The translations under genes and the position numbers were made by a program. Below the pieces are notes generated by a model. That model was not told the DNA's origin and did not search any database. It saw only the letters and a list, made by a program, of their open reading frames with translations. A DNA stretch of 64,000 bases, taken from contig CAVRCJ010000005.1 of assembly GCA_963719515.1 (NCBI GenBank), forward strand, positions 64,001 through 128,000. Reading direction: 5' to 3'. Below, piece after piece: positions 43,996-64,000 of the stretch (position 1 is its first letter; the number at the start of each line of letters is the position of its first letter). This DNA is from an uncultured cyanobacterium (GTDB taxonomy: Bacteria > Cyanobacteriota > Cyanobacteriia > CAKZMO01).

Positions 43996-45476
43996 CGGGG
44001 TGATGAGGTGCTGAACTCAAAACCTCGCAAAGGCTGAGGATACGTTCGCGAGTTTCAGTCCCCTCGCGGGGTGATGGAGTGCTGAACATGGCAGACTTAT
44101 TTGACTCAGCTACTGGCTGGAATTCATGTTTCAGTCCCCTCGCGGGGTGATGGAGTGCTGAACAGTCAAGATTGACGAAGTGAAAAAACGTCAAAGTCTT
44201 GTTTCAGTCCCCTCGCGGGGTGATGGAGTGCTGAACGGTTAATGCAGTCACGGGACACCTGTGACACTGAGGTTTCAGTCCCCTCGCGGGGTGATGGAGT
44301 GCTGAACACACAATGGACCGGCTAACGGTATCTAGGGAGTAGTTTTAGTCCCCTCGCGGGGTGATGGAGTGCTGAACGGGAATTCTTAAAAACTAGCAAT
44401 AACTCAGATTAAAGGTTTCAGTCCCCTCGCGGGGTGATGGAGTGCTGAACGTTTAAGGGCGAGTATTTTGCTGTTACTCCTGAAGTTTCAGTCCCCTCGC
44501 GGGGTGATGGAGTGCTGAACTCGTACTGGATAAGTTTGAAGTCAGCCTTCTGCAAAGCAGTTTCAGTCCCCTCGCGGGGTGATGGAGTGCTGAACTATCT
44601 AGAAGGCTCAAACGAGCCTAAGATTGGAGAAATGTTTCAGTCCCCTCGCGGGGTGATGGAGTGCTGAACTGTGCGACCAGCAGCGCTTACAACCCCACCC
44701 CCGTTAGTTTCAGTCCCCTCGCGGGGTGATGGAGTTCTGAACGTGATAGAACGGTATTCGGACAATTTTAGTCCAATTGGTTTCAGTCCCCTCGCGGGGT
44801 GATGGAGTGCTGAACACCCAAGGTTTACTCGATGATCGTGGATGAAGAGGTAAGTTTCAGTCCCCTCGCGGGGTGATGGAGTGCTGAACATCTGTGGCAC
44901 TTCGCCAATGACCAGGTGCCAGTCGGGTTTCAGTCCCCTCGCGGGGTGATGGAGTGCTGAACCTATCGAGACCTGAACTTTCCTGGGCTGGATCAAGAAA
45001 TGGTTTCAGTCCCCTCGCGGGGTGATGGAGTGCTGAACATCTACTGGGATGCCATGTTGTTTTAGGCAACCCGTTTAGTTTCAGTCCCCTCGCGGGGTGA
45101 TGGAGTGCTGAACTTCAAGTGCGGCAGCCAAGATTCTGGAAGGTGAGACAGGTTTCAGTCCCCTCGCGGGGTGATGGAGTGCTGAACACGAAATGTTACA
45201 GCGAATTCAATGGCAGTTAAAAGTTTCAGTCCCCTCGCGGGGTGATGGAGTGCTGAACTGAACCCAATGCAGGGAAACGACACTGTACTTGGTGGTTTCA
45301 GTCCCCTCGCGGGGTGATGGAGTGCTGAACGAAAAAGCCTGCTCCGGGGCCTGGAAGACAAGAAACAGTTTCAGTCCCCTCGCGGGGTGATGGAGTGCTG
45401 AACCGTAATGTTCAAGAGCCACTTAGAAAGCGTGGTACGAGTTTCAGTCCCCTCGCGGGGTGATGGAGTGCTGAAC
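43996..45476 (-). CRISPR. CRISPR array 1: 20 complete repeats plus the IS110-split trailer repeat, 20 spacers of 34-40 nt
   Basis: Repeat GTTCAGCACTCCATCACCCCGCGAGGGGACTGAAAC (minus strand). Leader on the right, degenerate repeat on the left. Confidence 0.98.
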
Positions 45477-45660
45477 CCTCGGCTTTTGAAAGCCTTACAG
45501 GAAGCGACCTCCAGACCCCACTTTGCAGGGGGGTCTAAATACTTTGTCAATAAGGCAATTCTCTGAGCAACTAGAAAGCTCAAAAAACGGCTGAAACCCT
45601 TACCTGACAAAGGCTTTAGGGGGGTCAACGTAATAATGCGGTTTTCAAGGTTCGGCCTAC
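45477..45660 (-). promoter_or_regulatory. CRISPR leader 1
   Basis: Similar to the array 2 leader. Motif GGTCAACGTAATAATGCGGTTTTCAAGG at 45623. Confidence 0.8.
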
Positions 45661-45946
45661 CCCCCTACACTAACACTTCAGCACAAAAGCTCTGCAGACG
45701 TAATACATTCTTTAGAATCTCCCTCAAGCGGCTCAAACTTTTACTTGACAAGACTTTGACCTCCCTCCGTATCAACAACACTGGCCCGAAAAACACTTGG
45801 TTTGTGGGGCCAGTGTCGGCGCTGCACTAGCCCCATTTCTGGAAATGCGGAAACTGCACAAAAGTGAATCAAAGATGATGAGCGCCTAGAATATCCCTAT
45901 CGATATGTCTCAATTCTAGGCGATCGCACCTGTAGCCAAGTGCCAG

Positions 45947-46360
45947 CTACCGTTTCCAGCGCATTGGACGATAGGTCTCCTGCTCCCCTGTTAAACAACG
46001 CACATACTCCCACACCTGCAGCTCAAAGATGCGCCAGTGGCTTACCTTGAGGCCGGTTTGTGGATGAAGGACTTCCTGAAGTAGGCGCTTCTCCCACACC
46101 GTCAAAAACCGCTTCAGTCCATCAGGATGTAGATAAACCCCGCCCCTGGCATCCGGTGGCGTAAAGTCCTCAGGCATCAGCGCCTTGGAGTTGACCACAT
46201 AAGCTACTATCGAATCCACCACTAACGCTCTGAACTCTTCGATCAGGTCAGATACCAGTGCGGGATGATTCTCGCGAGGCACATGCAAATTGCCAAAGTG
46301 TTCAGCCGCTTCAGCAGCAGCCGAGAATTATGCAGCTTCGCCTGCACGCTCGCTTGCAAA
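45947..46360 (-). pseudogene. cas1: cas1 remnant
   Basis: C-terminal HFGNLH...HPALVSDLIEEFR...VDS. An out-of-frame piece AKLHNSRLLLKRLN abuts it, implying an internal deletion. No N-terminus and no cas2 seen. Confidence 0.85.
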
Positions 46361-46551
46361 GACGTAGCTTTCATCGCGATCGCCCGCAACAGGCGTCATC
46401 TTTCCCGCACTGGGTGAGCAAGCCAACCCCACTGCGACAAGATTCAACATCACGTCAAGCTTGGGCAAGGCCAGCGTCAGCACCGCTCAAAGCCCGTAAA
46501 TTAAAGGGCACCTTACAGATGTACCTAAAATTACATCCGACATCAGATCCA

Positions 46552-47037
46552 ATGCCCACAATCAATTCAATCAGCACCACCCTCACCCCCGAAGACCAGC
46601 AGCAGATCGCCTCGGCCATTGCCACCATCCGAGAGCGGCTCCCCTTCCTGCTCAATCTCTCCCCCAGCCAGCGCCGAGAGCTGCCCAAAATGGGCGACAA
46701 AAGCCGCGCCTTCGTGCAAAACGCCCTCACCGTCGCCCGCCAAAACCCCAACATCTTGCCCCGCTCGTTCGACTTCGAGGAAATGGAGCGAGACGTTCAG
46801 CTGTTTGAGGCGATCGCGCCCCTGCTGCTCTCCGTCGCCCAACTGCACGAGCTGCTAGACGATACCCTGCTGGCGGTGGGCAGCGAGTCCTACACCGCAG
46901 CCCTCAAGGTCTACAACTACACCAAGGTCAGCGGCCAGATGGACGGCCTCGACGCTGCCATGCGGGAGATGGGCCAGCGGTTCACACGTTCTCCGAGGAC
47001 CAGCCCACAGGGGAGCGCACTCCCGCAAGAAGGCTAA
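46552..47037 (+). CDS. conserved hypothetical all-helical protein
   Basis: LPFL.NLSP..RR.LPKMGDKS.AFV...; strong codon bias. Confidence 0.7.
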   Translation: MPTINSISTTLTPEDQQQIASAIATIRERLPFLLNLSPSQRRELPKMGDKSRAFVQNALTVARQNPNILPRSFDFEEMERDVQLFEAIAPLLLSVAQLHELLDDTLLAVGSESYTAALKVYNYTKVSGQMDGLDAAMREMGQRFTRSPRTSPQGSALPQEG

Positions 47038-48361: not shown

Positions 48362-49109
48362 GTGGTATGCCCCATCCCCAGCCGCGTTTCGCACCTGTGC
48401 CACAGAAGCTAGCGTAGCGCAGCAATAGATGGGCAACGTTAGCCAGCAGCGGGTCGGCTCGTGACAATACGCGAAGCGAAACGCTACCGGTAAACCCAGA
48501 AATACGGCTGCTGTGGACCTGAAACGATCGCGTCTGGATGCGGTGATGGGATAGGGCGATCGCTCCCCGAAGTAGCTCACCAAATCGTCCCCACCGAGGT
48601 AAACCGGCGCAAAGTGGTTCCAGCGCTCTAGCCAGCTGCGAAACATTAGGGTAGGCACAGGGAGCGGTAGGTAAAGTTTGCTTTGAGAAAAGGCCGTTGG
48701 TGTCGCAAATCTCAGGTCGAATTGCCGCACCGGGTCCGGCTCGCTAGCAACGTACTCGTGATACAGCGTCTCGTAGCTGGTGACTTCGTCCTCGCGGTTG
48801 ACGATGTTGAAGCGGGCTCCCAGGGACTGGAGCTGATCACCTAAGTCGAGGGAGGCGATGGCCTTGGATGAGGGCTCCTGTAAGCCGCTGAGGGAGAGCT
48901 GGTAGAGAGCTCGCCCGGCTAAAGGTGACGAACTCTTTAGACGTTCTGCAGTGGCCTAAAATTCCCGAAAAGGTAGTCGAGGGTGTAGCTTCGCTGCCCA
49001 TCTCAATTTGGAGCTGGGTATGGAGCAGTTTGGATAGTTCTAGACCGTAGGACTTGGGTAGGGAAACTGTGGTGTCGGTGGTCAGCGTCCAGGATGAGCG
49101 AATGAGCAT
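48346..49109 (-). pseudogene. cas6: Cas6 endoribonuclease, frameshifted in this sequence
   Basis: F.TPTAF, P.P.LMFRSWLERWN.F, Gly loop GTGAK|TRLGMG across a 1-nt gap in an A-run. Confidence 0.85.
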
Positions 49110-49111
49110 GG

Positions 49112-50387
49112 TTACACCGCCTTTAGCTCAATCCAGCCAGGAACGTATTTGATTTCCCCTCTAGAATTCATGATGGTTCGTCGGGATTTAGGCGCTTCAA
49201 AATCCGGTGCTTTGATGCCGCAGGCGTCGCGAATATCGCCTACTAGCTCATCTGGCATCAACAGATTGACCGTTGTGCCCCGAAAGCCGCTGCCCCAACC
49301 CAGCCGCAGCGTATGGGGGCAGACCTCCGGCTCGTAGATGTCTTGAATATCGCCAAAGTCCAGATTGCGTCCCTGAGCATTGGGGTTATTCTGCACCGCC
49401 GCCCAATAGTCGTGCTCAAAATCCCACTGGTCTTGGGCAAACTCGCGGCAGATTTGCAGTAGGTCATCCACGGATTGAAAGGGCAACTGCATCCCCGCAT
49501 TGTGGTGGAACCAGGACAGCATCCGTGGTCAATGCTGAGGGTGAATTCGGTCGGCACGTTGAACACCATCTGGCGTAGATGGAGGCGCGGTACTTGGCGC
49601 GGTAGTCCGGGAAACGGCTGGAGACGACGACTTCAGTCACCACTGGCAAATTTCTGAAGATGGGGCGCTTTCCCTGCGCTGCACCTTCTCCTCAATCAGC
49701 GGCTCCGTGTCTGATACTTGAATTGCCCGCATGATGTCGGTATTGGGTCCCTGCCGCGCTTTCACTTCCCGACCTGGTAGCGGAGGCCAAAGTTGGTAAA
49801 TAGCTCATCCATAAACGCCGCATCGTCAAAGAACTCGGCCTTGCGTCGCAGCTCTCCATCGATTTGCGGAGCCTGTCCTCAATGGCGCTCACGCGGTGTT
49901 GCTTAGGCACTTTGTAGCGGTCAGCGTGCTTCAGCAAGATGGTAGGCGATCGCCGTCCGCAGCGCCCCTTTAATAGAGGAGCCGGGAATGTAGTGGTGGT
50001 TGAACCCATTGCGAATCATGGGCCGTAAATCGGTGATGCGATCGTTGACCCAGTCCAGGCTGCGGGACTCTCTCGGGGAAAGAGAGGCTGTCCGTCTTCT
50101 GTAGTCATCCGCACCCAGTCATCCCCGAAGGCATCGTTTAGCAGGTCGCCGATCGACTCGCGATCTTCAATGCAATGCACATAGTCATTCAAAAAGCCCC
50201 GCTGCTTAAGGGCCTTTGCCAGCGCTTCTGAGTCCGGCAGATAGACAAATCGATTGGCCTGCACGTATTCGAACGGGTTGAGCCGCGAGACCGCTGAGCC
50301 GATGTGCAGGATTCGGCTGGTAAGACGAATCTGCTTAGTCTCGTAGATGCTGGGTTTGGGCAGCGGTGAGTTAGTTGCGGAGGTCAT
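49112..50387 (-). pseudogene. csm5: type III-A RAMP Csm5, frameshifted in this sequence
   Basis: LHIGS...LNPFEY, LRLGWGSGF.GTT, PKSRR, PGW. Confidence 0.85.
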
Positions 50388-50795
50388 ACCAGTTCTCTAT
50401 GCTGAGGTGGAGAAGCCTGCGTAATCGCTGATGTTTCGGGTAACTAGAATCAAGTTGTTCGTGTGGGCGATCGCAGCAATCTGTCCATCTACGAAGGGAG
50501 GTGTTGCCAAGCTCGCCCAGTCTCGCGCGCTCTGCGGCGTGCCATGTAGCACTTTCAGCGTCATATGATAGGAGTGGGACTGTCTTTCGAACGACGTTAG
50601 CTAGATAGGACTCAATCGCCTGCCGCTTTCGCGATTCCGCCAACCGTTGGCAACCGAACCACATTTCGTGCCAGACGACTGAAGCTGTGCTGACTTGCTC
50701 ACGGTAATGTTCTAATTGTTTCAGACACTGAGGCTGGTACGCTTCCGCACTGGCTCGGAGAGAATATTTGTATCTAAGAGGTAGCGTAAACTCAT
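50371..50795 (-). pseudogene. vapC: VapC/PIN toxin, frameshifted in this sequence
   Basis: MSLRYLLDTNILSE, then in another frame VVWHEMWFG...; ends IENW. Confidence 0.8.
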
Positions 50796-51069
50796 CGATC
50801 AACTTCTCGCCCTGGAGATGAATTGCTCAGCCCTTCAAACACGTCAGCCTCAATTCCCTCAGCTTCTATGTTAAATTCACGTCGAAACGCTGTTAGAGCA
50901 TCCCAGAAGTCAGGTTTGGATATTGTTAGTCGCTCATAATTCTGGCTAGAGACCAAGACCGCAACTCGTCTACCTGATTTCAAGATTTCAACTAGAGTGC
51001 CCTGTTCTACCTCAGCCATGATGTCGCTGAGCTGAGTTGGGCCTGCTCGATTGAATATTGACTGGGCAT
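50792..51069 (-). pseudogene. Phd/YefM antitoxin, one frameshift
   Basis: AGGAGG RBS; MPSQYSIEQA|LSDIMAEVEQG..VEI..SGRRVAVLVS...YERL. Confidence 0.78.
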
Positions 51070-51084
51070 GGTCCTCCTAATTGG

Positions 51085-52279
51085 CTAAGCCACTTCTTCC
51101 TTTAGCTGGACAGACAAACTCAGAGCAACCCCGCTGCGATAGACCGAATGTCGCAGGCCCGGGTGCGGGCCAATTCACCGCTGCCGTCATCGAATATCCG
51201 GGCGTCACGTCAGCCAGCCGCCCGACAGGCTGCTTCGGAAAGACCGACCCCTCGGTAAACATGCGAATCATTTGGCGGCGGAGTTGGCGACCAGAGGGGG
51301 AGGCAATCCAGCCGCCTCGATCTTGAACGCCGTAGCGAGCGCTCTCCCCCAGCCAGGTTCGATTTAGGCTCTTGTCCCAAAACAGGCTGATTAGGCCGTG
51401 ATGGTCACCCCCCTCAAAATTGCACCATTGCCGTCCAATCAGCAGGCAGCTCCTCCCACGCACACACCGTGAACCGGCCCGCCCCGCTAGAGCGCTCGCC
51501 CCCCACGCCCGTTTCGCCAAGCACCGTCAGCGTCTGGCGCAGCTCCTGCTCTAGCTCAGGTGCAGCCTCGGGAAGCTCTAGCAAGAAGTACAGCCCGGCT
51601 AATTGCTCGACATTTGGATCGCCCCAGTCCTCAGTGCTTCCGCGCCCCGGCTGCCAAGCGAACTGAATCAGCCCGGTGTGGTAGAGGTTTGTGGCGCGAG
51701 TGGTGCGATCGATGGCAACTTTGGGTAGGGTGTAGCGGGTGAAGGCATCGCCATAGCTAAACGTTTCTGCTTGGGCAAGGGCGGTGGGGAAAGCTCCACC
51801 ATCGGCTTTGCTTTCCTTAGTCTCGCGCTTTTTGAGTTCTTCCCCATCCTCAACCGCAAACCCATTGCCCTGGTACCAGCGCTGCCAAACTGACTTGGGC
51901 AGATAGGTCAGTTTTTTATAGGCCTTGGCAAAGCTCAAATCATCGTCGGGATCACACCAGGTGGACCTCCGGCTAGCTTGGGGAGGTAGTCAATGAAACC
52001 ATCTCCCTGGCGACGATAAACGAAGGTGGAGCTGAGGCGAAACAGGCGGAGCTGTGGAGGGACCTAAAAACTGCTATCGCCCAGCACTTCTACTTCGGGT
52101 TTATCGCCAACAGCATCCCCAGGTTGGTTGAAATAATCTCTGGCATAGGTGCTGATCAAGGCGCTAAACAACGTATCCGACTGCAGCCGCTCGGTAGTTT
52201 CTTCTAGGCCAATGCCCACTTGCCCAAAATGGGTTGGGCTGCGCCCAAAGTTGAGGCGCACTAGTCTCCATTCGCTCAT
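51085..52279 (-). pseudogene. csm4: type III-A RAMP Csm4, frameshifted in this sequence
   Basis: HFG..G.G, SDTLFSAL, GVGGERSSGAGRF, EGSVF, HSVYRSG. Confidence 0.88.
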
Positions 52280-52320
52280 GGCTGTCCTCTAGTTTTCCTC
52301 TGGCTTTCCTCTAGCTATTC

Positions 52321-53300
52321 TCAATCGCCACCGGGCAACAGTCGCTCAACCTCAACAGTTAGGTCGCCAAAGCGTTCTAGCAGCATAGTCGTATTGTCCA
52401 GCGTCAGAATCGGATCTGAAAAGTTAGCGCCAGCGGCTGTAATCTGCCGGTACTGCTCCACGCTGCGGTAGTAAAACTTGAAATTCTCAAACCGCACTTT
52501 GCCGTAGCCCCGCGACCCGTGGCCGCCTAGGGCGTCGTCTTCAAGGATAGCGAGGGCGATCGCAATGTTCTTGAGGTCTTCTACCGCCTGGGTTTTGTTT
52601 TCTACGGTGTAAACCAGCTCAAAATAAAGATCAGCACCAGCCGGGACGCGCTCACTCTGACGGGGGTTGGCGGCGGCGGTGATGCGATCGAGGCCGTTTT
52701 CGAATTTCCAGCTCAATTTCATAAAAACCAGGCCCGGTATCGATTTTTCTTCGAGCTGCTGGCAGACTGGGGCGAACAGTGGCATCGCGGCCATCCGTAA
52801 AGCCGGGCGTTAAGCCTTTTGGTGCGATTGTACTTTGCAACCATCAGATCGGTCGCAGAAATTAATGCGTCGATATCGTCAGCTAGTCCTGGTAAAGGGC
52901 GATCACCGGGCAGTCCAGGCGTTTTCCTCCCCCGTAGATCCAAACAGTTTTGGCTTTGCATTTATTGGCCGCCGATATCGCGCACATATTGACCATCGCC
53001 AATATCGGTGAAGCCATCCACTAGGTCATCGCTTTCGTAGCGATAGGTGCCGCTGCCGCCAGCGCGGTTGAGCGGCTTATTTAACAGCCGCTCCAAGGTC
53101 GCCCGCAGCTTGCCCTTAATCGAAGAACCTGGTAGATAAGGCTGCTGGGTGACCGGGTCGCGAATGACTGATTTATCTAGCCCGCCAATATCCAGCGTCT
53201 CGCCGCCGCCACCGATGTGGAGCCCTGTTTCTGCAGTCAAGGTACTCACCAGCCTTAGCTTTCCGAGCAGCGGCTTCTGGTCTCTGGTCACAACGGTCAT
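52321..53300 (-). pseudogene. csm3: type III-A backbone Csm3, frameshifted in this sequence
   Basis: TGLHIGG....IGGLD..VIRDP, PGSSIKGKLR, ANPRQ.ERVP, LGGHGSRGYG. Confidence 0.9.
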
Positions 53301-53302
53301 AA

Positions 53303-53821
53303 TTAGCGGCCTCCCGCAGCTTTGTGATAGGCAATGATAGATTCGATCATCTGAACCAGGCGCTCGAAGTCCTTGCGGTTATAGGTTTTGTTGATTGCCC
53401 GCTGACATCACGTTGCTGAGTGGCTGTCCAGCGTCTTGCCGGGCGGCGGCGTAGGCCAGCTTCGGGTTTAAGAAGGATGATATCAGACTCAATCTTGGCG
53501 AATAGTTCAGCGGCGCGGCGCTCTTTCTCCGCTTCAGACTGTATCTCTTCTTCAGGTACTACTGTATCGCCTTGGGCAAGCTGCGCTTTGAGGCGGTTGA
53601 TGGCATGCAAAAACTTGCGAATTTAGTTAGTCTCCGCACAGCCAGTTTTCGGAGAAATGGACCGAATGCTTCTGCGCATGCTCCACCGGGTACGATCCCA
53701 TAACCCGCCAAGCTATCCAACCCGTTGATTTCGTCAGTCATCTGTTTGGTAATGCTGACGAACCTGTATTCACTACGGCGCAGGGACGATTGGGTTTATC
53801 AATTATCTTGTTCTTGGCCAT
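53303..53821 (-). pseudogene. csm2: small subunit Csm2, frameshifted in this sequence
   Basis: IRKFL.AI, LLKP|KLAYAAAR, DFERLV..IESIIAYHK. Confidence 0.85.
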
Positions 53822-56174
53822 TGGTTTCTTTGGTTCCAGTTGAGCGGGTGAGTAAATCTAGCCAGGTGGCGATCGCCCGAAAATAGGGTGCGTTATAGGG
53901 GCTCTTTAGGGAGGTGCTAACAGCAGAAAATCCCTTTGTATTCTTCACCTCTTTCGAAACTCTAGCTAGGGTATAAGCCACGCGGGGCAGGTGAAGAAAA
54001 TAGCGAAGTGCCTTAACCTGCGTAGACTTCTCTTCCTTTGCCTGCTTAATCCACTGCTCTTGGAGCTGCGCTGTAGAGAGCAGATTGCGGACAAAGCTGC
54101 GGGAGTACTGGGTACCCAGCTCGTCTTTGAGCTGACGGACGAACGGCAGCACGCCAAATAGAGCTAACGTCGTATCCTTGCCGATGTACTCCTTCAGTTC
54201 GGCGTCAATCACCGCAATTTCAGAAGCTGCTTGGTCGCGGCATCCCAACCACTCCTCCCACTTAAAAACTTGGTCAAACAGCCCCAAGCTGTCGCGGCCA
54301 TTATCTTTACCCTGCTCCTCCGCATGGCCAGCATCCGCCGCCGACTGATACAGGGGATACTTAGGGCCGTTGAAGCTCACCCCCGCCGAAAGTGTAATGT
54401 CGGGGTGCCAGCCGGTGAAGGCGCGAAAGCTCTGGTACACGTCAAAGGCAAATTCTACGATTTGGTCCCAAGGACCGCTGACAAACAGGTCGTCGCCACC
54501 AGCATAGATAAACAGTAAGTCTTGGCGAAGGTCATCAGTTAAGCTCTGAAACGGCTGCTGGGATCTGTGGCCCAGGAAATCGCGATCGCGGTGTGCTGCC
54601 AGGCTGTTGAGGTAGACCTTAAAGAAGTAGCTCATCTGACGGGACAGGCTGGCGATTCGTAATAGGTTGGGGCAGGTCAACCCCCGAGCGAAGAGCTGCC
54701 CCAGGCGATCCACATCCATCCGCAGGTGCCCTACCCGCTGAATACCCTGCGATCGCTCTGCCATCTTGGAAGCGGGGAGAAACTGCTTTCGCGTTTGCCC
54801 TCTCTCATTCTCAAACTCGGATTTCTGACCGTAGTTGCCGAGCGGCAGCAGCGTTGGATTACGAAATCTCCTGACCTGATAGTCGCTAATTTTCCAGTTA
54901 TTAATGAGGAATGTGGTCTCCACCGGCACCTCAGAGACAACATTCGTGGCCTCGAAAAGACGGTAATAAACCGCTCGCTGCCCAACTTGGATTTTGAGCT
55001 CTTTGCCATCGTACTTATGCTCCGGTTTGTGCATCCTTGAAGGCTCGTAGGAGCGGGTCATAGAGCCAACATCGGGCAGTTCGCTACCAAGGCTGAACAT
55101 CTTGCGGCAGGTGGGGCACGCCTCCGGGCCTTCTTGGTCGAGGGTGTTGAGCGGCCCTAGCTCGTCTGTGTCGTCCCGGTGGCAGACTTTACAGGGTTCG
55201 TAGGCATGATGCAGTGCCAGTAGGTCGCCAATTTGGCTGTCGAACTTACGCTGCTTTTGAGCCGATAGCCGCTTATTGATAGTGGTCCAATCGTTCGCAA
55301 AGCCTTCTTGTCCCAAGGCGTTGATGTCAACCTCGACCTGATCCAAGCAGAGAAAGACCTTTCCCTGAAACTCCCTTCGTAGCCAGCCATTCACCTCTTC
55401 TCTGAGCTGAGCGATCGCCCCCTGAGTCTTCTCCCCAGCCGGGGCGATCAGATACAGCTTGCTGGCCCCCGTGTAGATAAGGCTGGTGCGCGGCAGCTGT
55501 AATCGCTCCAAAAGCTGCTGCACCACCTCTTCCGCCACCAGCTCCAGGTAAAAGCTGCGGGCACGGAGAGATTTAAGCGCCCCATCGGAAGCGATGGTGT
55601 ATATAAAGTCCTGCACGCCAGAGAGGTCACCGCCAATGAGCGCGACCGTGTTGACCTGCTTATCTCCAGCCTCTGATGCCTCGATAGCGGTGGCGATCGC
55701 TGCAGTTGATTTTGCTAAGTCAAATAGAGAAATATCGGCATCACCGTAGCTGAGGCAGCCGCCAAACTTCTCCACGATGAGCGACAGCGAGGGAAGATTC
55801 TGCCAGTCGTCTGAGTTGAAGCCGGTTAGGTCAGCGCTGATGCTCTTTTTGAGTAGTTCAGCATCAGGTATTGCTTCGACAGGATATGGAATGGGCGGGG
55901 TGTCATCGGCGATCGCTGACATGGGCTGGTAGTGATGTCCTCGTGACCCTTGAGCGAGGTGAATTGAGTCAAAAATGGAGCGCAGCGGCTTGAGCTCGGT
56001 GGCGTTTGCCCAAGCCGGTAAGCTTGCTTTAGAACGGATAACCGTTGTCGTGTCTTCTGGCGTGAAAGCTACAAGAGCAGATAAACCGGCGAAATCTGCT
56101 AGACGCTCTACCGCCTGCTGAAAGATAACGAGAGCTGGGTCAGGAGTTGTCATTGCGCTGCTGCCGCCCTTCAT
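53799..56174 (-). CDS. cas10: Cas10/Csm1 large subunit
   Basis: GDLSGVQDFIY, LRARSFYL, CxxC pairs, MDVD.LG, YAGGDDL. No HD motif visible at the N-terminus. Confidence 0.95.
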   Translation of the reverse strand: MKGGSSAMTTPDPALVIFQQAVERLADFAGLSALVAFTPEDTTTVIRSKASLPAWANATELKPLRSIFDSIHLAQGSRGHHYQPMSAIADDTPPIPYPVEAIPDAELLKKSISADLTGFNSDDWQNLPSLSLIVEKFGGCLSYGDADISLFDLAKSTAAIATAIEASEAGDKQVNTVALIGGDLSGVQDFIYTIASDGALKSLRARSFYLELVAEEVVQQLLERLQLPRTSLIYTGASKLYLIAPAGEKTQGAIAQLREEVNGWLRREFQGKVFLCLDQVEVDINALGQEGFANDWTTINKRLSAQKQRKFDSQIGDLLALHHAYEPCKVCHRDDTDELGPLNTLDQEGPEACPTCRKMFSLGSELPDVGSMTRSYEPSRMHKPEHKYDGKELKIQVGQRAVYYRLFEATNVVSEVPVETTFLINNWKISDYQVRRFRNPTLLPLGNYGQKSEFENERGQTRKQFLPASKMAERSQGIQRVGHLRMDVDRLGQLFARGLTCPNLLRIASLSRQMSYFFKVYLNSLAAHRDRDFLGHRSQQPFQSLTDDLRQDLLFIYAGGDDLFVSGPWDQIVEFAFDVYQSFRAFTGWHPDITLSAGVSFNGPKYPLYQSAADAGHAEEQGKDNGRDSLGLFDQVFKWEEWLGCRDQAASEIAVIDAELKEYIGKDTTLALFGVLPFVRQLKDELGTQYSRSFVRNLLSTAQLQEQWIKQAKEEKSTQVKALRYFLHLPRVAYTLARVSKEVKNTKGFSAVSTSLKSPYNAPYFRAIATWLDLLTRSTGTKETNGQEQDN

Positions 56175-56399
56175 GAAGACCTCGCGTCGAGTTCTGCGGC
56201 ATGTCTTGGCGCGAAGGGGGGCTAATCACAACTTCAAGCGCTTTCGATACTAGCCGTAGTCCGCATATACCTTAACTAATGGTCTTGGCTCGCGGCAACG
56301 TTTTGTTTGCTATGAAATCTTAATATTTCCTGTAAGTCGCCCAGTGAGGGAGCATGTCACTTTTGAGCCCAGTCTAAAGAGAAGCCGCTAGCGTCTACA

Positions 56400-56490
56400 C
56401 CCTAAATCCCTCTCCCAATCCTGGGAGAGGAACTTGGATATCTTGCTCTCCTTCTCCCAATTTTGGGAGAAGGGGTTGGGGGATGAGGGC
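56400..56490. repeat. REP-like hairpin doublet
   Basis: CCCTCTCCCA-N-TGGGAGAGG and CCTTCTCCCAA-N-TTGGGAGAAGGGGTTGGGGGATGAGGG. Confidence 0.75.
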
Positions 56491-56520
56491 CGCTTGCCGC
56501 TCACGCGAACCTGTCTAGCA

Positions 56521-56892
56521 TCAGAGAATCGCCCGATAAATTTCCTCCAAAACAACGTTTAAGCTGCCTAGAATAGCTTCGTTTGTAAATCGTAAAACCT
56601 GGTAGCTATACTTCTCTAATTCTTCAGTTCTGTAGGCATCGTAGTCTTCGCGCTGCGCATGAATACCCCCATCAATTTCAATCACAAGCTTCTCAGAAGG
56701 GCAGTAGAAATCTAGGATAAATCGGCCAACCGGATGCTGCCTACGAAAGCGCAAGCCATTCAGCTTTCGGTTCCGCAACGCTTGCCATAGCCTGACCTCT
56801 GCGGGGGTAGAGCGTTTGCGCAGTTGCCGCGCGGCTTGGTCAATGTTCGGGGTGGTTCCTCGGATTCTGGGATGCTTTTGCTGTGACGCCAT
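56521..56892 (-). CDS. DUF559 (Vsr-like) endonuclease
   Basis: ARQLRK..TPAE..LW..LR, FRRQHP, DFYC....L.IEIDG..H, LRF.N. Confidence 0.92.
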   Translation of the reverse strand: MASQQKHPRIRGTTPNIDQAARQLRKRSTPAEVRLWQALRNRKLNGLRFRRQHPVGRFILDFYCPSEKLVIEIDGGIHAQREDYDAYRTEELEKYSYQVLRFTNEAILGSLNVVLEEIYRAIL

Positions 56893-57016
56893 TGTTCTAG
56901 GGCGATCGCTTTTGAAAAGGATTCCCGGATTTGGCCCTCTCCCCCGGCCCCTCTCAACTGTGCATAGCCCTCACCCCCGGCCCCTCTCCCAATTCTGGGC
57001 GAGGGGAGTCCGGATA

Positions 57017-57268
57017 CCTCACATTCCTATGAGAAGAAAGACCAACACGAGATTGAATTGAAATGCGATCGCGATCGCCTGGGCGTGTTTCTATCCCCGT
57101 GAGGGGAAGACGGCGCGAAACAAGCATCCACGAAAAGATCGAAGGCAGGGCCGCCTTGTTTCCATCCCCGTGAGGGGAAAATGGCGCGAAACCGCTCGCA
57201 GTGGTTGAAGATGAACGGAACAAAATGATGCAAGTTTCCATCCCCGTGAGGGGAAAATGGCGCGAAAC
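57017..57268 (-). CRISPR. mini-array A: three 35-bp repeats plus a degenerate trailer repeat
   Basis: GTTTCCATCCCCGTGAGGGGAAAATGGCGCGAAAC (+ strand) at 57087 (variant), 57158 and 57234. Leader motif at 57416. Confidence 0.88.
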
Positions 57269-57656
57269 CCCACCCCTTTTAGAACGCCCATCACACAAGG
57301 CATCGAGATACCCCGAACCACAGAGGTCTAAAAGAGAAGTCAATAGACAAGAACTGCTTGCATCAGACGTACGGAAAGTAACGCCTAAACCCTTGCGGGA
57401 CAAGCAATCCACATAGGTCAACGTAACTATGCGGTTTTCAAGGATCGGTAGACCTCTGTGGCCAGAGCGTCATTGCCCCAACTATAGTGCCGAATACCGT
57501 TTTCTATCCGCGCCTCAAGAATTTCTTTAGAGTCAGACTACGGTCGATTGACCCGGCGGGTAAACACGCTGTAGAGCCGAGCCAAAATCAACTCGCGATC
57601 TAAGGTGCGTATATTGCGAGCCACAGTAAAGCTAACAGGACTGACGTAAGGTCACC

Positions 57657-57806
57657 CCCAAGCAGCCGACCGTTACGGTTTGCAGGCTGGTTGATGGTGA
57701 GTACGAGCTGCTGCAGTTCCGTAGCGGCAACGATGCTGATCGCGTCATGTTTCCCAGTTTTCCGGGGTTTGCGCCGACGGTGAACCAGATTTTCAATCCC
57801 GGTTAG
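57657..57806 (+). pseudogene. Uma2 C-terminal remnant
   Basis: PKQPTVTVCRLVDGEYELLQFR....RVMFPSFP...TVNQIF*. Confidence 0.65.
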
Positions 57807-57849
57807 ATTTTTAATTTTCTGTGATGTCGTTGTTCCAGGGCGATCGATC

Positions 57850-58072
57850 TCCCAACCTAACGACCTGTGGTCACGCTACGCGTTTGCGAAGCATGAGCTT
57901 TGCTCAAAGGGCGAGGGGAGTCCGGTCCCCTTCCCTCGGAATCGGGGGAAGGGCTAGGGATGGGGGCCAAGTCCCTGTGAGGAAAGAGTCGTTTGGCGTT
58001 TTGAGGACCTCTCCCCCGGCCCCTCTCCCAACCTACGACCTGCGGTCACGCTACGCGAAGGGAGAGGGGAGT
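57850..58072. repeat. REP-like hairpins with short inserted repeats
   Basis: Two copies of ACGACCTG(T/C)GGTCACGCTACGCG sit in the loops of CTCCC...GGG(C/A)GAGGGG stems. Confidence 0.6.
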
Positions 58073-58079
58073 CTGGATA

Positions 58080-58184
58080 CCCCATATTCCTATGAGAGGA
58101 AAAACCAATGCGAGATTGAATTGAAATGCGATCGCGATCGCCTGGGCGCGTTTCAATCCCCGTGAGGGGAAAAAGAATCGAAAC
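58080..58184 (-). CRISPR. mini-array B: one repeat, one 33-nt spacer, one degenerate repeat
   Basis: GTTTCAATCCCCGTGAGGGGAAAAAGAATCGAAAC at 58150-58184. Leader motif at 58331. Confidence 0.75.
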
Positions 58185-58422
58185 CTCCTCGATTTAGAAC
58201 CTCCGCCCCATAAGGCTTTCAGATAGCCAAAATTGCGGGGGACGGAAATATGAGGTCATAGTTGCGAAACGCTTGCAACAGGCCAGAGCAGAATAATGCT
58301 CAAACCCAGTCATAGTAAGCCCTCCGCGGGGGTCAACGTAATTATGCGGTTTTCAAGGATCGGCAGACCCCCACAGATGGAGGTCCATGCGCCAAATATA
58401 GTGCTCATCGCCTCGAATGTGT

Positions 58423-58674
58423 TTATTCTTTTGACGTTTCTTTAGAATCTCGCCCCCGGTTAATCCAACGGGTGAATACGCTGTAGAACTGATCTCCTGA
58501 TGGCGTTCGCAGCAGCGGACTCCAAAGATTGGGATGGCCGAAGCCCTTCGAGTACAGCAGATGGATCGTGCTGGTGATTCCAGCGCGGGAACCCGTCAGC
58601 ACCACGCGAACCGGCTCGCGGTTAGACTGCTCTGACGAATCATTATGATCGCGGAGTGGAGGAACATTGGACAT
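58423..58674 (-). CDS. small hypothetical protein upstream of the mini-array leader
   Basis: REPVRVVLTGSR.GITSTIHLLYSKGF....WSP. A paralogous C-terminal remnant lies at about 57537-57575. Confidence 0.65.
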   Translation of the reverse strand: MSNVPPLRDHNDSSEQSNREPVRVVLTGSRAGITSTIHLLYSKGFGHPNLWSPLLRTPSGDQFYSVFTRWINRGRDSKETSKE

Positions 58675-58798
58675 AACTGATAGACCAAAAATAAGCAGGA
58701 CGACAGGCGATGGGTGCTAGACCATCGTTTGATGAGACACTGAGACCAATAGCAAAACCAGCGCTGCTGGCGTCGGTCAAACAGCGAGTTTACTTATC

Positions 58799-58875
58799 CA
58801 AGCAGGCTTGTAATCCTATTGCTAGTCAACCATGCTTGTAGGGGTAAGTCAAGCTGGTTTATCCAAGCGTGCTTA
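58799..58875. promoter_or_regulatory. four operator-like palindromes (CAAGC-N2-GCTTG consensus)
   Basis: CAAGCAGGCTTG 58799, CAACCATGCTTG 58827, CAAGCTGGTTTA 58850, CAAGCGTGCTTA 58864. Confidence 0.65.
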
Positions 58876-58881
58876 TACACA

Positions 58882-59118
58882 ATGGCTCCGAAATCTTCAA
58901 AAGATCAAGACTCTCCTCTCCGTCAGCGACGAGAGGAGCTAGGCCTGACGCAGCGCGACCTAGCTCTCGCTCTCGGCAAAACAGACCAGACCATCAGCAA
59001 TTGGGAAACGGGTATTTACGAGCCGAAGATGACTCCTCGGGAGATCAAGAAGTTATGTGAGCTACTGCAATGGAAAATTGAAGACATGCCAGATGAGTTT
59101 GGCCCGGCATCTGGCTAA
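58882..59118 (+). CDS. XRE-family HTH transcriptional regulator
   Basis: LRQRREELGLTQRDLALALGKTDQTISNWETG..EP. Confidence 0.9.
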   Translation: MAPKSSKDQDSPLRQRREELGLTQRDLALALGKTDQTISNWETGIYEPKMTPREIKKLCELLQWKIEDMPDEFGPASG

Positions 59119-59277
59119 ACTTGAGGCACCCCTTTAAAGAATCGCCATCGTGATTAACGAAGACCAGGGCGATCGCTTTAGCGATCGCCCTACAGGTCCA
59201 GATAAGCTAGATTTCTGGCAAGCGCTTCAAAAATTCCGCCAGCAGCTCGAACATGAGAACTGGGCGATCGCCACAAG

Positions 59278-59712
59278 TTACAGCCCCTCAAGCTCCTCCC
59301 GCAAGACCTGAGAATCCCTCCAAGCGCTTACACGTCCATCGCGATAAACCTTAGCGATAAACGGTGCCGGATTTTCTCTAGCGAAATTTTGCATGCTCGT
59401 CATCGCTTGAGTAAAAGCTGCAATGGTGTTAGCCCCAGATAAATTCTGAGAGGTCAGCACGAACATCTTAACGTTGGCGCTAGCTACCGCTAGACGTTCT
59501 AAAGTTCGCTTACCGATCCGCTCATCCTTGGTGAGAACGATCCACCCTCGGCGTCCTATCTCGGGAAGCCAGTCTACGTCAGGAGCATCTTTAGCAAAGT
59601 GGTCGTCATGAATCTCGACGGTGAGGTTGAGATCCCGCAGAGCTTGAGCCAGCTTCTTGCGGCCTAAGCACCTGTCAATGAAAAAGGTTGCGACTTCAGA
59701 TGATGAAGTCAT
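59278..59712 (-). CDS. PIN-like (VapC45-type) toxin
   Basis: FFIDRCLG, DAPD.DWL, WIVLTKD.RI. Confidence 0.85.
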   Translation of the reverse strand: MTSSSEVATFFIDRCLGRKKLAQALRDLNLTVEIHDDHFAKDAPDVDWLPEIGRRGWIVLTKDERIGKRTLERLAVASANVKMFVLTSQNLSGANTIAAFTQAMTSMQNFARENPAPFIAKVYRDGRVSAWRDSQVLREELEGL

Positions 59713-60410
59713 GCCGCCGCTGGCATTTCACAGCGAATCGCTTCTTCCACAAATAAAGGCGGACAATCGTAGTCTTCCACTAAGTCTTGAATTGAATCCC
59801 CCGCTTTATACCTTTCTGCAATGACGCCTGTTGGAATGCCAGTCTTATCAATGACGAGCCGACCAAACGCAATGCGAGGGTCAATAACAACAATACGCGG
59901 GTTGTGGGCCTCGTCAGCTCGGGTAAAGGGGTAAAGCTTAATAGCCAGCCCAGAATCATCTGGCTCGATGCGTTCTAGATGCGTCTTGACCACCTCTTTC
60001 AAACTGGTTTGTCCCTGTTGCGAAGCGCTGATGAGGGTACCGTAACGTTCAATAAACAGATTGACGCCGTCAGTGCTAAAGCTTTCGTGGGCTAACGGAT
60101 GGGAAACCCGAAGCTGATCTTCGAGGAAATCTAGAGCGCTCCGAACTTTGTCCAGCTGGATCTTGTGATACTTGCGAATTGCCCTCAAAACGTGGACTTC
60201 GACTAGGTTTGTAAATGACAGCAGTCGGGGTTTGAGATCGTCTGTGGAGATCAAGGGTTCAAAAAAGCGCTCTCCCTGTGATACTGGATATGACCGACCT
60301 GCCGTCCACGAACGAATTGTGCCCGCTGGAATTCTCAAATAGCGAGCAGCATCGCTAATTGCGTAGGTCGGAATGTTTTGAGGATTCCCACCGTCATACA
60401 GGTTTGCCAT
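59709..60410 (-). CDS. HTH plus DUF433 antitoxin
   Basis: Y.I.DAARYL.IP..TIRSW, LSF.NLVE, IDPRIAFGR.VI..TGI, AGDSI..L..DY. Overlaps the toxin start by 4 nt. Confidence 0.88.
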   Translation of the reverse strand: MANLYDGGNPQNIPTYAISDAARYLRIPAGTIRSWTAGRSYPVSQGERFFEPLISTDDLKPRLLSFTNLVEVHVLRAIRKYHKIQLDKVRSALDFLEDQLRVSHPLAHESFSTDGVNLFIERYGTLISASQQGQTSLKEVVKTHLERIEPDDSGLAIKLYPFTRADEAHNPRIVVIDPRIAFGRLVIDKTGIPTGVIAERYKAGDSIQDLVEDYDCPPLFVEEAIRCEMPAAA

Positions 60411-60626
60411 CGGTACGCGCGCTTACCCTGAAGCACAGGGAAGTAGGTGATGATTGGGCGATCGTAGCACTTTTTGAGGGAGGAGCAGCCGCATAACGCT
60501 AGTTTCTGCACTCGCGAAGGATTTGCTCTTTGAGCGTATTCTGCAATTGGCTAGCGCTTACTACCCTTGAAAGACATCTTTCAGTAGGTAACCGCCGTAA
60601 GTTAAAAACCTATAAGCACCTCATCC

Positions 60627-61856
60627 ATGCAATTTGCCTCCACTTTCCTCTCCCACGCCTCTGTAGACAAACCTCTAGTCGAAGCCGTCGCCCAGCGGCT
60701 CGGTCGCCGGGGCGTCTTGGCCTGGCTCGACAAAACCGAGCTAGCCCTGGGTTCTCTAAGCGCCGCCCTCAAGCAGGCCGTCCAGCAGCAGGCCACCATC
60801 ACCCTGTTTCTCTCCGAAGCCGCGATCGCCTCCGACTGGTGCCGGGATGAGCTGCTCTACGCCCTCGAAAATGCCGAGAACTTGGACCACATTCTGCCGG
60901 TGTACCTGGGTGACCCCGTCGCGCTGGTGACAAAACACCCCATCCTGCGATCGCGTTTCCTGCATCCCGACGGCGATCGCGTTGACCAGCTTGGAGTCTT
61001 TGACTCAAGCAATCCCACAAGCCCCGACCCAGACGTCGTAGCCCAGATGATTGCCGCCACCGTTTATGGGCACCTATCAGTAGAGTCATCCCCCGAAGTC
61101 GCGATCGTCTTAGATCAGCGGGGGAATGGACCGCGTCGGGGCCGTCTGCCGTCTATCCCCACTAACGTGCAGAGCTTATCGATTCCTGCGCTTACCTTTC
61201 GGCCCGATATCGGCGTACGGCAGCAGCGATCGCTTTTGACCGGCAGCGACTGGGAGGACATGAGCCAAACGATGGCATCCGCCTTCGACGCGGCCTTGGG
61301 CACTATGCGCGGCGACTCTCGCAAGGTTCTGATTCTTGGGAATGCTCAAACGGGGCTGATGTGGGCCGTTGGCCAGCACTTTAACCGGACGACCTCGGCA
61401 GATTTGTACGTCTATGGCAGAGAGGGCGTACCCTTGTCTAATAAAGGACAGATTCGGCATACGTCTTTGTCTGGTGGCGATTCGCAGCGGGCAACGCTTG
61501 TCTCTAACCCTGCGGACCTAGGTGCTAACCAGGCAGAAGTTGCTTTAGGGGTTGGCCCTTCAGAGAAATTTAAAGCGGCTGTCCAAAAAGCGGTTCCTCA
61601 GGTTCCCCTATTCTGGGTTGAGTCTGGCCGTATTGAGAATTCGGAGCAGGCGATGACGCTGGCTGCAGATATCGTCGCCTCGGTTGAGCATCTTCGCCAA
61701 ACCTATGGCGTTGAGCAGTTGACGATGTTCTGGACGACGGCAAATCATGCAGCAACCCTAGTGGCCGCAAATTTGACGTCGCACGTTATCTCCAACGTCA
61801 GATACATGGAGTGGGACCACGGCAGCGGAGAATACGTCCATCTGCCAATGCCGTAG
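60627..61856 (+). CDS. TIR-SAVED-like cyclic-oligonucleotide-activated NADase effector
   Basis: N-terminal TIR (FLSHAS.DK, SDWCRDEL with Glu). The C-terminal part has two SAVED-like halves (VLILGNAQTGLMWAVG; LTMFWTT..HAATLVA...YMEW....YV). Confidence 0.75.
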   Translation: MQFASTFLSHASVDKPLVEAVAQRLGRRGVLAWLDKTELALGSLSAALKQAVQQQATITLFLSEAAIASDWCRDELLYALENAENLDHILPVYLGDPVALVTKHPILRSRFLHPDGDRVDQLGVFDSSNPTSPDPDVVAQMIAATVYGHLSVESSPEVAIVLDQRGNGPRRGRLPSIPTNVQSLSIPALTFRPDIGVRQQRSLLTGSDWEDMSQTMASAFDAALGTMRGDSRKVLILGNAQTGLMWAVGQHFNRTTSADLYVYGREGVPLSNKGQIRHTSLSGGDSQRATLVSNPADLGANQAEVALGVGPSEKFKAAVQKAVPQVPLFWVESGRIENSEQAMTLAADIVASVEHLRQTYGVEQLTMFWTTANHAATLVAANLTSHVISNVRYMEWDHGSGEYVHLPMP

Positions 61857-62094: not shown

Positions 62095-62850
62095 GTTTCA
62101 GTCCCCTGACGGGGTGAAGTAGTCCTGAACGAGGGTCCTGACGGAACGCTCAGCATCGCATTAGTTGTTTCAGTCCCCTGACGGGGTGAAGTAGTCCTGA
62201 ACCAGTTCCTCAAACTGCTGTAGAGGCAAGCAACAGGTTTCAGTCCCCTGACGGGGTGAAGTAGTCCTGAACCCTTCTTCTTCACGGGCAACCGGCCCGG
62301 AGACGGGGCGTTTCAGTCCCCTGACGGGGTGAAGTAGTCCTGAATTCAAATGCGAATTCGACAAAGTTCTACAAAGGTTTGGGTTTCAGTCCCCTGACGG
62401 GGTGAAGTAGTCCTGAACCTGTAACGGGAAGGGAAAGGTAAAGAATCATCGCGGTGGTTTCAGTCCCCTGACGGGGTGAAGTAGTCCTGAACACGTTCGA
62501 GGAAATGCGGACATAGATATCTGTGGGTTTCAGTCCCCTGACGGGGTGAAGTAGTCCTGAACTGCCAATGCTTGGGTGTATGGCGTTCATTTACTGGATT
62601 GTGTTTCAGTCCCCTGACGGGGTGAAGTAGTCCTGAACCGATGATATCCTGAAGGGAGACATCAACACGGGAGTTTCAGTCCCCTGACGGGGTGAAGTAG
62701 TCCTGAACGCGCCTAGGTTCTTTCTCTCCACGTTTGTTGAGAGGTTTCAGTCCCCTGACGGGGTGAAGTAGTCCTGAACAATAAAGTTAAGTCTATCTAG
62801 AAGCGGAGCATCTGGTTTCAGTCCCCTGACGGGGTGAAGTAGTCCTGAAC
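62095..62850 (-). CRISPR. CRISPR array 2: 11 repeats, 10 spacers of 34-40 nt
   Basis: Repeat GTTCAGGACTACTTCACCCCGTCAGGGGACTGAAAC (minus strand). Leader on the right. Confidence 0.98.
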
Positions 62851-63030
62851 CCCCACCTTCTAGAACCCTTGCTACACAAGCCTTCCAGAAGCCGATTTTG
62901 ACAGGTCCAAAACTTGTTGTCAATAGGCCCATTCTCTGAGCAATTATAAATCTCAGAAAACGTCTGAAACGCTTATCTGACAACGCTTGTGACAAGGTCA
63001 ACGGAATAATGCGGTTTTCAAGGTTCGGCG
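62851..63030 (-). promoter_or_regulatory. CRISPR leader 2
   Basis: Similar to leader 1. Motif GGTCAACGGAATAATGCGGTTTTCAAGG at 62996. Confidence 0.8.
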
Positions 63031-63404
63031 CACACTGATACATTAACCCACTTCTCCTCATTTGTCCCATCCCGTAAGGTAATCTTCACAATCTCCCTCT
63101 AGCCCTCAAAGTCAAGCCCAGCAATAAATCTAACCCCTCCAGCCACAGCCATACTCAGCTCCACAGACCCATCGATTTTAGGCAAAAGCCCCCTTTCACC
63201 ACTCCACATCAGGAAGCCCAAAAAATGCGCCTTAATGCATTTGGTATGCACAAAAAAGCCACCAAAGGCGATCGCCTCCGACTAAAACCCTCACGCCAAA
63301 AACATTCCAGCCATTCAGGCCGCCGAGCCATCACTGACAAAATTTCTACACTAAGCGGTATACCCCACCACTTCTCCACCACCACCACCACAGCACATCC
63401 CCAT

Positions 63405-63454: not shown

Positions 63455-64000
63455 ATGGCAACTACCAAACCCCGCCGCAAAACTTCCCAACCCAAGCGCA
63501 CCACCAAAGCCTCCCAGCCCACCTGGCCAAAGAACACAGAACTCCTGCGCCTCACCTTCACCCTCATCCCCGACAAAGACTACGACCTCTACGCCCAATA
63601 CTCCATCGGCCTCCACGCCTGGTTCCTGCAGCAGATTCAAGAGACCAACCCCAAGCTCTCCCAAACCCTCCACGACGACGCCAACGAAAAAGCCTTCACC
63701 GTTTCTGGCCTAGACGGTGCCTTCGTCCCCAGCGGCCAGCAGCTGCGCCTGGTTGCCAAAAAGCCCTACCGCTGGACCGTCACAGCCTTCTCAAAAAAAC
63801 TCGTGCAGTGGCTCGCCAAATGGCTCAAAACCTTGCCGCCTACCCTAGAGCTGCGAAATGCCGTGCTCACCATCAACGGCGTTGCCGTCGAAGCCGCCAC
63901 CACCTACGAGGCAGCTAGCGCAGCAGGCCCACGCCGACAAAGATGCCAGCGACGCCCCAAAATCGCCCTCAGCTTCACCTCCCCCACCAGCTTCCGGAGT
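63455..64000 (+). CDS. cas6: second Cas6 endoribonuclease (partial, runs off the window)
   Basis: Manual translation: YSIGLHAWFLQQI....P.LS..LHD...EKAFTVS.L, TTYE, LSFTSPTSFR. Confidence 0.88.
   Translation, partial: MATTKPRRKTSQPKRTTKASQPTWPKNTELLRLTFTLIPDKDYDLYAQYSIGLHAWFLQQIQETNPKLSQTLHDDANEKAFTVSGLDGAFVPSGQQLRLVAKKPYRWTVTAFSKKLVQWLAKWLKTLPPTLELRNAVLTINGVAVEAATTYEAASAAGPRRQRCQRRPKIALSFTSPTSFRS

Follow-up and report, generated by a model that had tools for sequence, protein, structure and literature searches.

TIR-SAVED proteins, in which a TIR domain is joined to a SAVED sensor, are known both from antiphage signaling systems based on cyclic oligonucleotides (CBASS) and from type III CRISPR loci. 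CRISPR-associated members were mentioned in a 2022 review (PMC9704534) and were reported from seven type III loci, including III-A (PMC11229360, Hoikkala et al. 2024); TIR appears nowhere in the available portion of the main text of the 2025 classification (PMC12669027). We analyzed a 64,000-nucleotide stretch of an uncultured cyanobacterium (the window, G000:C5:64001-128000; assembly of 5.28 Mb in 21 contigs, completeness estimate 100%), in which a CRISPR island spanning ~44 to 64.6 kb includes a cas10 gene and a TIR-SAVED gene. We consider it likely that the island encodes a type III-A system with a cyclase-intact Cas10 that lacks the HD motif, that its TIR-SAVED protein, the sole effector found, would deplete NAD+ in response to cyclic oligoadenylate (cOA), and that the breaks present in its csm genes are probably errors of assembly.

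The closest described systems each resemble this locus in part. TSR1, a TIR-SAVED-Crn4 protein of Arachnia propionica (bioRxiv 10.64898/2026.09.16.751991), is likewise the only effector of its type III locus and is an NADase that is activated by cyclic triadenylate (cA3) and needs its TIR glutamate E86. It differs in its fused Crn4 ring nuclease, its fixed dimer and its III-D setting, whereas a third domain is lacking in the window protein. MkeTIR-SAVED, a CBASS protein (PDB 7QQK), is the best whole-chain fold match and in a swap experiment functions together with a cyclase of type III (bioRxiv 10.1101/2022.05.04.490601), but its natural partner is a CD-NTase, none of which was found in the window genome, and the two proteins share 16-17% identity. 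Cat1, a TIR-CARF protein (PDB 9MUD), is likewise a type III effector that depletes NAD+, and ~10% of the Cas10s that accompany it carry HD; it differs in its CARF sensor, its response to cyclic tetraadenylate (cA4), its filament and the reversible arrest that it causes (PMC12162218). For the TIR-SAVEDs of Hoikkala et al. cA4 was suggested (PMC11229360), whereas the context in the window leans to cA3. The window protein is a TIR-SAVED of a known effector class, neither TSR1-like nor CBASS, and the design of the locus, an HD-less Cas10 with a CRISPR TIR-SAVED, is rare and already described. Neither of these features, both noted in the first-pass annotation of this DNA, which was made from the letters alone, is new, and the finding adds a clade to a rare known class. 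We found no paper that tests this clade, which we set beside TSR1 and the seven loci by their descriptions only.

The TIR-SAVED protein and its Cas10

The TIR-SAVED gene (60627..61856, + strand) is an open frame of 409 amino acids, with TIR at residues ~1-150, including E75, and SAVED at ~151-409; these two domains cover the whole chain, and a fused Crn4 ring nuclease is absent. Profiles and a structure model agree that this is a true TIR-SAVED. The Pfam families TIR_2 (E 5e-17) and SAVED (E 8e-10) both match above cut-off, as does the NCBIfam SAVED model (34.9 bits, cut-off 33). The PADLOC profile SAVED5--SAVED_TIR (PDLC02012) matches across residues 3-407 (E 2e-58), so that the clade is already catalogued as a profile, one that we take to originate in the 2020 CARF/SAVED classification. 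The AlphaFold model (predicted local distance difference test, pLDDT, 94.6) has 7QQK as its top fold match (Z 24.8, 369 residues aligned, root-mean-square deviation 4.2), followed over residues ~151-409 by SAVED-CHAT, Cap4, CalpL and Cap5; against SAVED structures as a set, Z is 16-25. The SAVED call, first made by resemblance of motifs and with some doubt, is settled by these matches, and the description of an intact TIR plus SAVED gene near array 2 was correct.

A first search found 102 homologues, and a profile search (E <= 1e-30) found 134 clusters, some of which match in the TIR only. In an alignment of 90 of them, F7, D35 and E75 are invariant (90/90). E75 lies within WCRDEL and aligns with the TIR glutamate of Cat1 and of bacterial TIRs, so the NADase signature that had been noted is present. 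The nearest solved TIR by sequence is that of Cat1 (E 7e-17), with 7QQK at E 0.11 in a profile match; since a search with the TIR region returned only the window protein's own family, the link to Cat1 comes from one sequence comparison. In the SAVED domain, H374 (71/90) and H386 (81/90) are conserved and are candidates only for ring-nuclease residues; in CalpL the SAVED domain itself can be a ring nuclease, with S395 and H396 catalytic. At E 1e-60 the family profile matched 0/400 other genomes across the phylum. An order-wide search gave 1/16, and no relatives were found in viral contigs or plasmids.

The cas10/csm1 gene (53799..56174, - strand) is open over 791 amino acids. Its product matches TIGR02578 (Cas10/Csm1) with 541 bits (cut-off 170), the match beginning at position 91 of the 753 in the profile, and csm2, csm3, csm4, csm5 and cas6 genes are present and colinear with those of relatives, which bears out the earlier assignment to type III-A. 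The cyclase motifs YAGGDD (GGDD at 559-562) and MDVD (486-489) do not vary across an alignment of 20 sequences, and D183 is also intact; from these motifs, cOA synthesis by this Cas10 on target RNA is likely. The N-terminal region holds no HD dipeptide and matches no Pfam HD family, as had been read from the sequence. A model of the protein (mean pLDDT 65.7) finds Csm1 chains as its fold matches (Z 28.7, 474 aligned, root-mean-square deviation 3.6). Because residue 8 of the model onward aligns to residue 1 of the solved Csm1 chains, judged from aligned ranges only, the domain at the N terminus has probably degenerated rather than been deleted.

Absence of the HD motif is an ordinary trait: HD is carried by 39% of 1113 Cas10s and by 65% of those of type III-A (PMC11229360). 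Close relatives of the window Cas10 occur in 22/400 genomes of the class, and in the 19 cyanobacterial III-A relatives whose loci we compared GGDD is present throughout, with a stray HD dipeptide in two (first 110-120 residues) that falls outside the conserved columns. By sequence, absence of the HD motif is a clade trait of these cyanobacterial III-A Cas10s. The full Cas10s of loci with a related TIR-SAVED behave alike (7/7 with GGDD and without HD in the first 120 residues).

Effectors vary across the 19 III-A loci. CARF-HEPN proteins (Csx1-type RNases) occur in 8, and CARF-TM, a Cami1-like CARF7, a CARF4 nuclease, Csx23, a CHAT-SAVED in G511 and, in G029, an unrelated TIR-SAVED are found as well; the last is 28% identical to the window protein, in the TIR region only. 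The G029 and G511 proteins (L021:13000-14220 and L097:14021-15352) have a SAVED3-class sensor fused to TIR and CHAT, respectively, and SAVED effectors were thus recruited independently within the same Cas10 clade. A reading of L097:14021-15352 as a TIR-SAVED was rejected, because it is a CHAT-SAVED. Intact III-A operons with an HD-less, GGDD-intact Cas10 are also present in L085 (G501), L091 (G574) and L092 (G603), where no recognized cOA effector was found within 20 kb; L085:14775-15443 and L091:939-1862 belong to no family. Five cyanobacterial III-A operons (L090, L092, L093, L095, L096) have an ATPase and partner pair inserted between csm5 and cas6a, and those scanned match PARIS profiles (AriA in L090 and L092, AriB in L092).

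The place of the TIR-SAVED gene weighs against a tie to cas10: it lies 4.45 kb upstream, on the opposite strand, behind a divergent toxin-antitoxin pair (59278..60410, - strand; DUF433-HTH antitoxin at 59709-60410, PIN_10 toxin at 59278-59712). Because of that distance and orientation, the link to CRISPR comes from family context and the presence of a single Cas10, and from no operon. The family context was drawn from 25 distinct loci with a related TIR-SAVED (L030 duplicates L009), of which 24, all but L043, were covered. Type III interference genes are present in 16 of the 25, of which 12 are III-D-like, three III-A and one III-B; two others hold cas6 only, and nothing was seen in six, five of them on contigs of <=4 kb and one with the gene near the contig start. 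Family profiles run on 124 proteins selected from these loci detected no CD-NTase. TIR-SAVED members that stand free of fusions are usually the last gene of their operon, and L027 and L033 have the gene behind csm5-cas6a, where Csx1 stands in G026. G026 also has a CARF-TM gene in a position similar to that of the window gene, upstream of cas10, on the other strand and beside a long cas6. A contig assembled from wild relatives connects the 3' end of the TIR-SAVED gene with array 2. In the tree of the family, III-A-linked members interleave with III-D-linked ones (L027 is sister to L023/L028, support 100/95), which indicates that the gene moves between subtypes.

Searches of the genome agree with the earlier statement, made for the window, that TIR-SAVED is the only visible effector. 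Translated in six frames, the genome gave one full-length SAVED-family match. It holds one true Cas10; a second match was rejected, being by inspection an ammonium-transporter-GGDEF protein. The SMODS profile for CD-NTases was blank, with positive controls in 3/14 genomes, though as one profile only it could miss a divergent cyclase. Profiles for Csx3, CARF-HEPN and CARF-TM detected their positive controls and had no match in the genome. Those for CARF7, Csx23 and CARF4 were blank as well, and since their controls failed to match, they count only together with tblastn of the genome with the CARF, Csx3, Csx23 and Mem_02 proteins of relatives, which found nothing. Past 64 kb, where other effectors or a CD-NTase could have lain, we saw by inspection the remainder of a 388-residue cas6 followed by housekeeping-like and mobile-element-like genes. 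In all, no other effector or ring nuclease was found in the genome, with NucC, CorA, Crn4 and Csx15/16/20 not searched by profile.

Predicted mechanism and activator

By analogy with characterized relatives, the window TIR-SAVED is predicted to be an NADase that assembles head to tail upon binding its ligand. In the mechanism that we propose, transcripts of arrays 1 and 2 would be cut by Cas6 into CRISPR RNAs (crRNAs) and loaded into the Csm complex, and target RNA would switch on the Palm domains of Cas10. The resulting cOA, most likely cA3, would be held between SAVED domains arranged head to tail, so that neighboring TIR domains would build a shared site and cleave NAD+ via E75, and growth would stop. 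Arrest may be long or lethal because no ring nuclease was found. The abortive infection named at first as the output is overstated: Cat1 causes reversible arrest (PMC12162218), the authors of TSR1 argue that type III is generally self-limiting (bioRxiv 10.64898/2026.09.16.751991), a SAVED domain may double as a ring nuclease, and cell death or abortive infection may follow here as a prediction only. Since a single cyclase and a single effector were found and an off-switch was not, the locus would make a clean test case for activator and for outcome, arrest or death, and it bears on the question of whether type III systems that lack a ring nuclease are suicidal.

By analogy we favor cA3 as the activator, at somewhat better than even chances. 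Both characterized TIR-SAVEDs respond to cA3, and L032 also encodes a SAVED-CHAT-like protein. Six loci, some of them close kin, encode Mem_02, which shares with Cam2 a REC-like domain at its C terminus; it is our own inference that the two are equivalent, and Cam2 itself is predicted to bind cA3 (PMC11229360). Two observations weigh against this choice. Csx3-AAA, of a cA4 ring-nuclease family in which Crn3 is cA4-specific, is encoded in four of the relative loci, yet it is common across these cyanobacterial loci. cA4 is also tentatively proposed for CRISPR TIR-SAVED in PMC11229360. cA4 is possible as the activator and in our judgment the less probable of the two. The low identity to 7QQK (16-17%) counts against the proposed mechanism as a whole.

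A scan of 31 longer or distant family members revealed five proteins in which Cmr6 is fused to TIR-SAVED (P0196, P0198, P0200, P0203, P0209). Pairwise identity among them is 28-43%. All five retain the glycine loop of Cmr6 and the glutamate of TIR, and they come from three source collections, each as a one-member cluster. P0092 is a Csx21-TIR-SAVED fusion, and in L038 cmr6 and the effector gene are neighbors. A search with P0209 gave no further Cmr6 fusion, and we found no paper on such fusions. The Cmr6 and Csx21 fusions are known from protein sequences alone, and any one of them may be a read-through artifact; if real and functional, the Cmr6 fusions would be a cOA effector built into a surveillance complex. 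Because of these fusions, and because free members are usually last in their operon, we raise as a speculative and doubtful proposal that the clade may be an effector docked on the type III interference complex, where it would receive cOA at the point of synthesis. If so, the window protein would be a partner of the Csm complex and not a sensor of cOA that diffuses through the cell. Members of the same clade are also fused to CHAT, caspase, SIR2, RelA/SpoT, EAD5, EAD8 and GT4-conflict domains (P0090, P0091, P0113, P0135, P0143, P0161, P0171, P0120, P0121, P0122, P0017, P0052, P0181).

The csm genes, broken as assembled, and rival readings

As a working system, the locus stands only in part: cas10 and the TIR-SAVED gene are open, and csm2 to csm5 and cas6a are broken as assembled, which had been overlooked, as had the remnant state of cas1. 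Frameshift-aware alignment placed three frame changes and a stop in csm2 (53306..53800, 5' end approximate), four frame changes in csm3 (52321..53300), three and a stop in csm4 (51103..52282), seven in csm5 (49112..50387) and three in the operon copy of cas6a (48364..49109), all on the - strand, for a sum of 20 frame changes and two stops, and none in cas10 or TIR-SAVED. Because the genes of the Csm complex are broken, a system with exactly the assembled sequence would be unable to work. The locus is also a caution, since open reading frames (ORFs) at both ends masked a frameshifted core.

We judge assembly error to be a good deal likelier than decay, because wild relatives lack the indels checked, gaps are in excess inside the block and conserved residues are uneroded. 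The five genes are single ORFs in 16/16 relatives compared, with one csm3 shorter. Contigs of wild relatives, from three sediment runs of one study and from other strain(s) than that of the window, have indels at >=6/20 mapped breaks (among the matches listed, 12/32 rows); at five of these the indel abolishes the frame shift and at the sixth it does so partly. Gaps and substitutions against these contigs were 33:179 inside the broken block and 0:101 in outside coding pieces (Fisher p 1.6e-6), tallied over the longest pieces; the tally excludes those from arrays or non-coding DNA, a distantly related DUF559 homologue and two X3 pieces that were short or partial. Mismatches at invariant columns (1.3-1.8% in csm3, csm4, csm5 and cas6a) are within the range of the relatives.

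Much of the remaining evidence weighs on the other side. By tblastn, the five genes have nine frame changes against four in a 204-kb control (174 orthologues), whose alignments contain 18 stop signs, taken as they stand. In a genome-wide scan C5:110-115 kb is the top 5-kb bin; a first frameshift hidden Markov model was insensitive, and a second flags five events in 48.3-53.8 kb and serves ranking only. Invariant-column mismatches are 4/25 in csm2, exceeding all 16 relatives, and 6/171 in Cas10, at the high end. The wild contigs are shallow (depth 2-6) and from another strain, the truncation of cas1 is apparently real, and the assembly is otherwise clean, which leaves room for a recent, real inactivation in this strain. 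The same system could then be dead here, with Cas10 and TIR-SAVED as intact leftovers. Confinement of the 20 frame changes and two stops to 48.3-53.8 kb of a clean assembly, the cas1 remnant, and mini-arrays and a lone repeat that point to turnover would all fit such a history. What it does not account for is that a matching excess of substitutions is absent, that no break falls in cas10, 2376 nt long and part of this operon (Poisson p ~1e-4, for 21 breaks), that both stops adjoin indels, and that cas6b, too, has an indel patch relative to a wild contig. We regard a dead system as unlikely.

Two further readings accept the protein and part it from this Csm complex. TIR-SAVED could act independently of crRNA-guided signaling, for example as a stand-alone NADase that senses c-di-AMP of the host, or in concert with a Cas10 released from the complex. 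It is oriented away from the operon, the genome encodes a diadenylate cyclase, an archaeal CBASS TIR-SAVED answers c-di-AMP without its cyclase (10.1101/2025.06.19.660554), and the two open genes are exactly the cyclase and the effector; against this, every member with sufficiently long flanks lies in a type III locus, six proteins join the family to Cmr6 or Csx21, and csm frames are open in wild relatives at the positions checked, so we hold such independence to be very improbable. Slightly less probable still is that TIR-SAVED, array 2 and the long cas6b are what is left of a III-D operon otherwise deleted, mismatched to the signal of this III-A Cas10. That 12/16 relative loci are III-D-like and have the gene at the end of the operon, that the gene is near a long cas6 in L023 and L028 and that array 2 has its own repeat would be expected of such a remnant, but the III-A-linked and III-D-linked members interleave in the tree, and in G026, too, an effector lies upstream of cas10, on the other strand and beside the long cas6. 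Cas10 enzymes also usually produce several cOA ring sizes, which likewise speaks against this reading. An intact III-A system signaling through TIR-SAVED, broken by the assembly, is the reading that we retain.

Other features of the island

CRISPR array 1 (44052..45476, 20 repeats, 19 spacers) and array 2 (62095..62850, 11 repeats, 10 spacers, with a different repeat) are both placed on the - strand from a leader-like block that is common to the two (45544-45674 and 62917-63047). No phage match was found for the spacers of array 1. Against plasmids, those of array 2 matched repeats of Synechocystis and, over 35 nt at 91%, a copper oxidase of Paraburkholderia, the latter judged to be chance; one self match of 19 nt was seen. 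A third repeat type (57087..58185, - strand) forms a mini-array of three repeats (57087-57269) and, separately, a lone repeat (58150-58185), with duplicated flanks and a leader-like block at each. A promoter scan gave chance-level matches.

The one Cas1 match in the genome is a C-terminal remnant of ~110 amino acids (45947..46327, - strand), and the system would therefore be unable to acquire new spacers by itself; cas2 was not found with two query proteins. A cas1 remnant of a similar kind is present in G026. The place expected for the 5' part of cas1 is occupied by an ORF without family at 46411-47037 (+ strand), and G029 has an unassigned ORF near its CRISPR locus too. Within the operon, a Phd/YefM antitoxin and a weakly VapC-like toxin (50371..51068, - strand) have indels relative to the wild contigs. 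An 83-residue ORF without family (- strand) and an XRE HTH regulator (58819-59118, + strand) form a divergent pair at 58423..59118, upstream of the cas10 leader region, and are a possible island regulator. The long form of cas6b (63455..64000, + strand, 388 amino acids, open) continues to 64621 past the window; at 63913-63953 it has 15 extra bases over ~40 nt compared with a wild contig, in five cancelling indels, a further suspect patch. Elsewhere in the genome, orphan arrays with related repeats (G000 C6:210297-213722 and C10:416422-417399) could feed this Csm complex.

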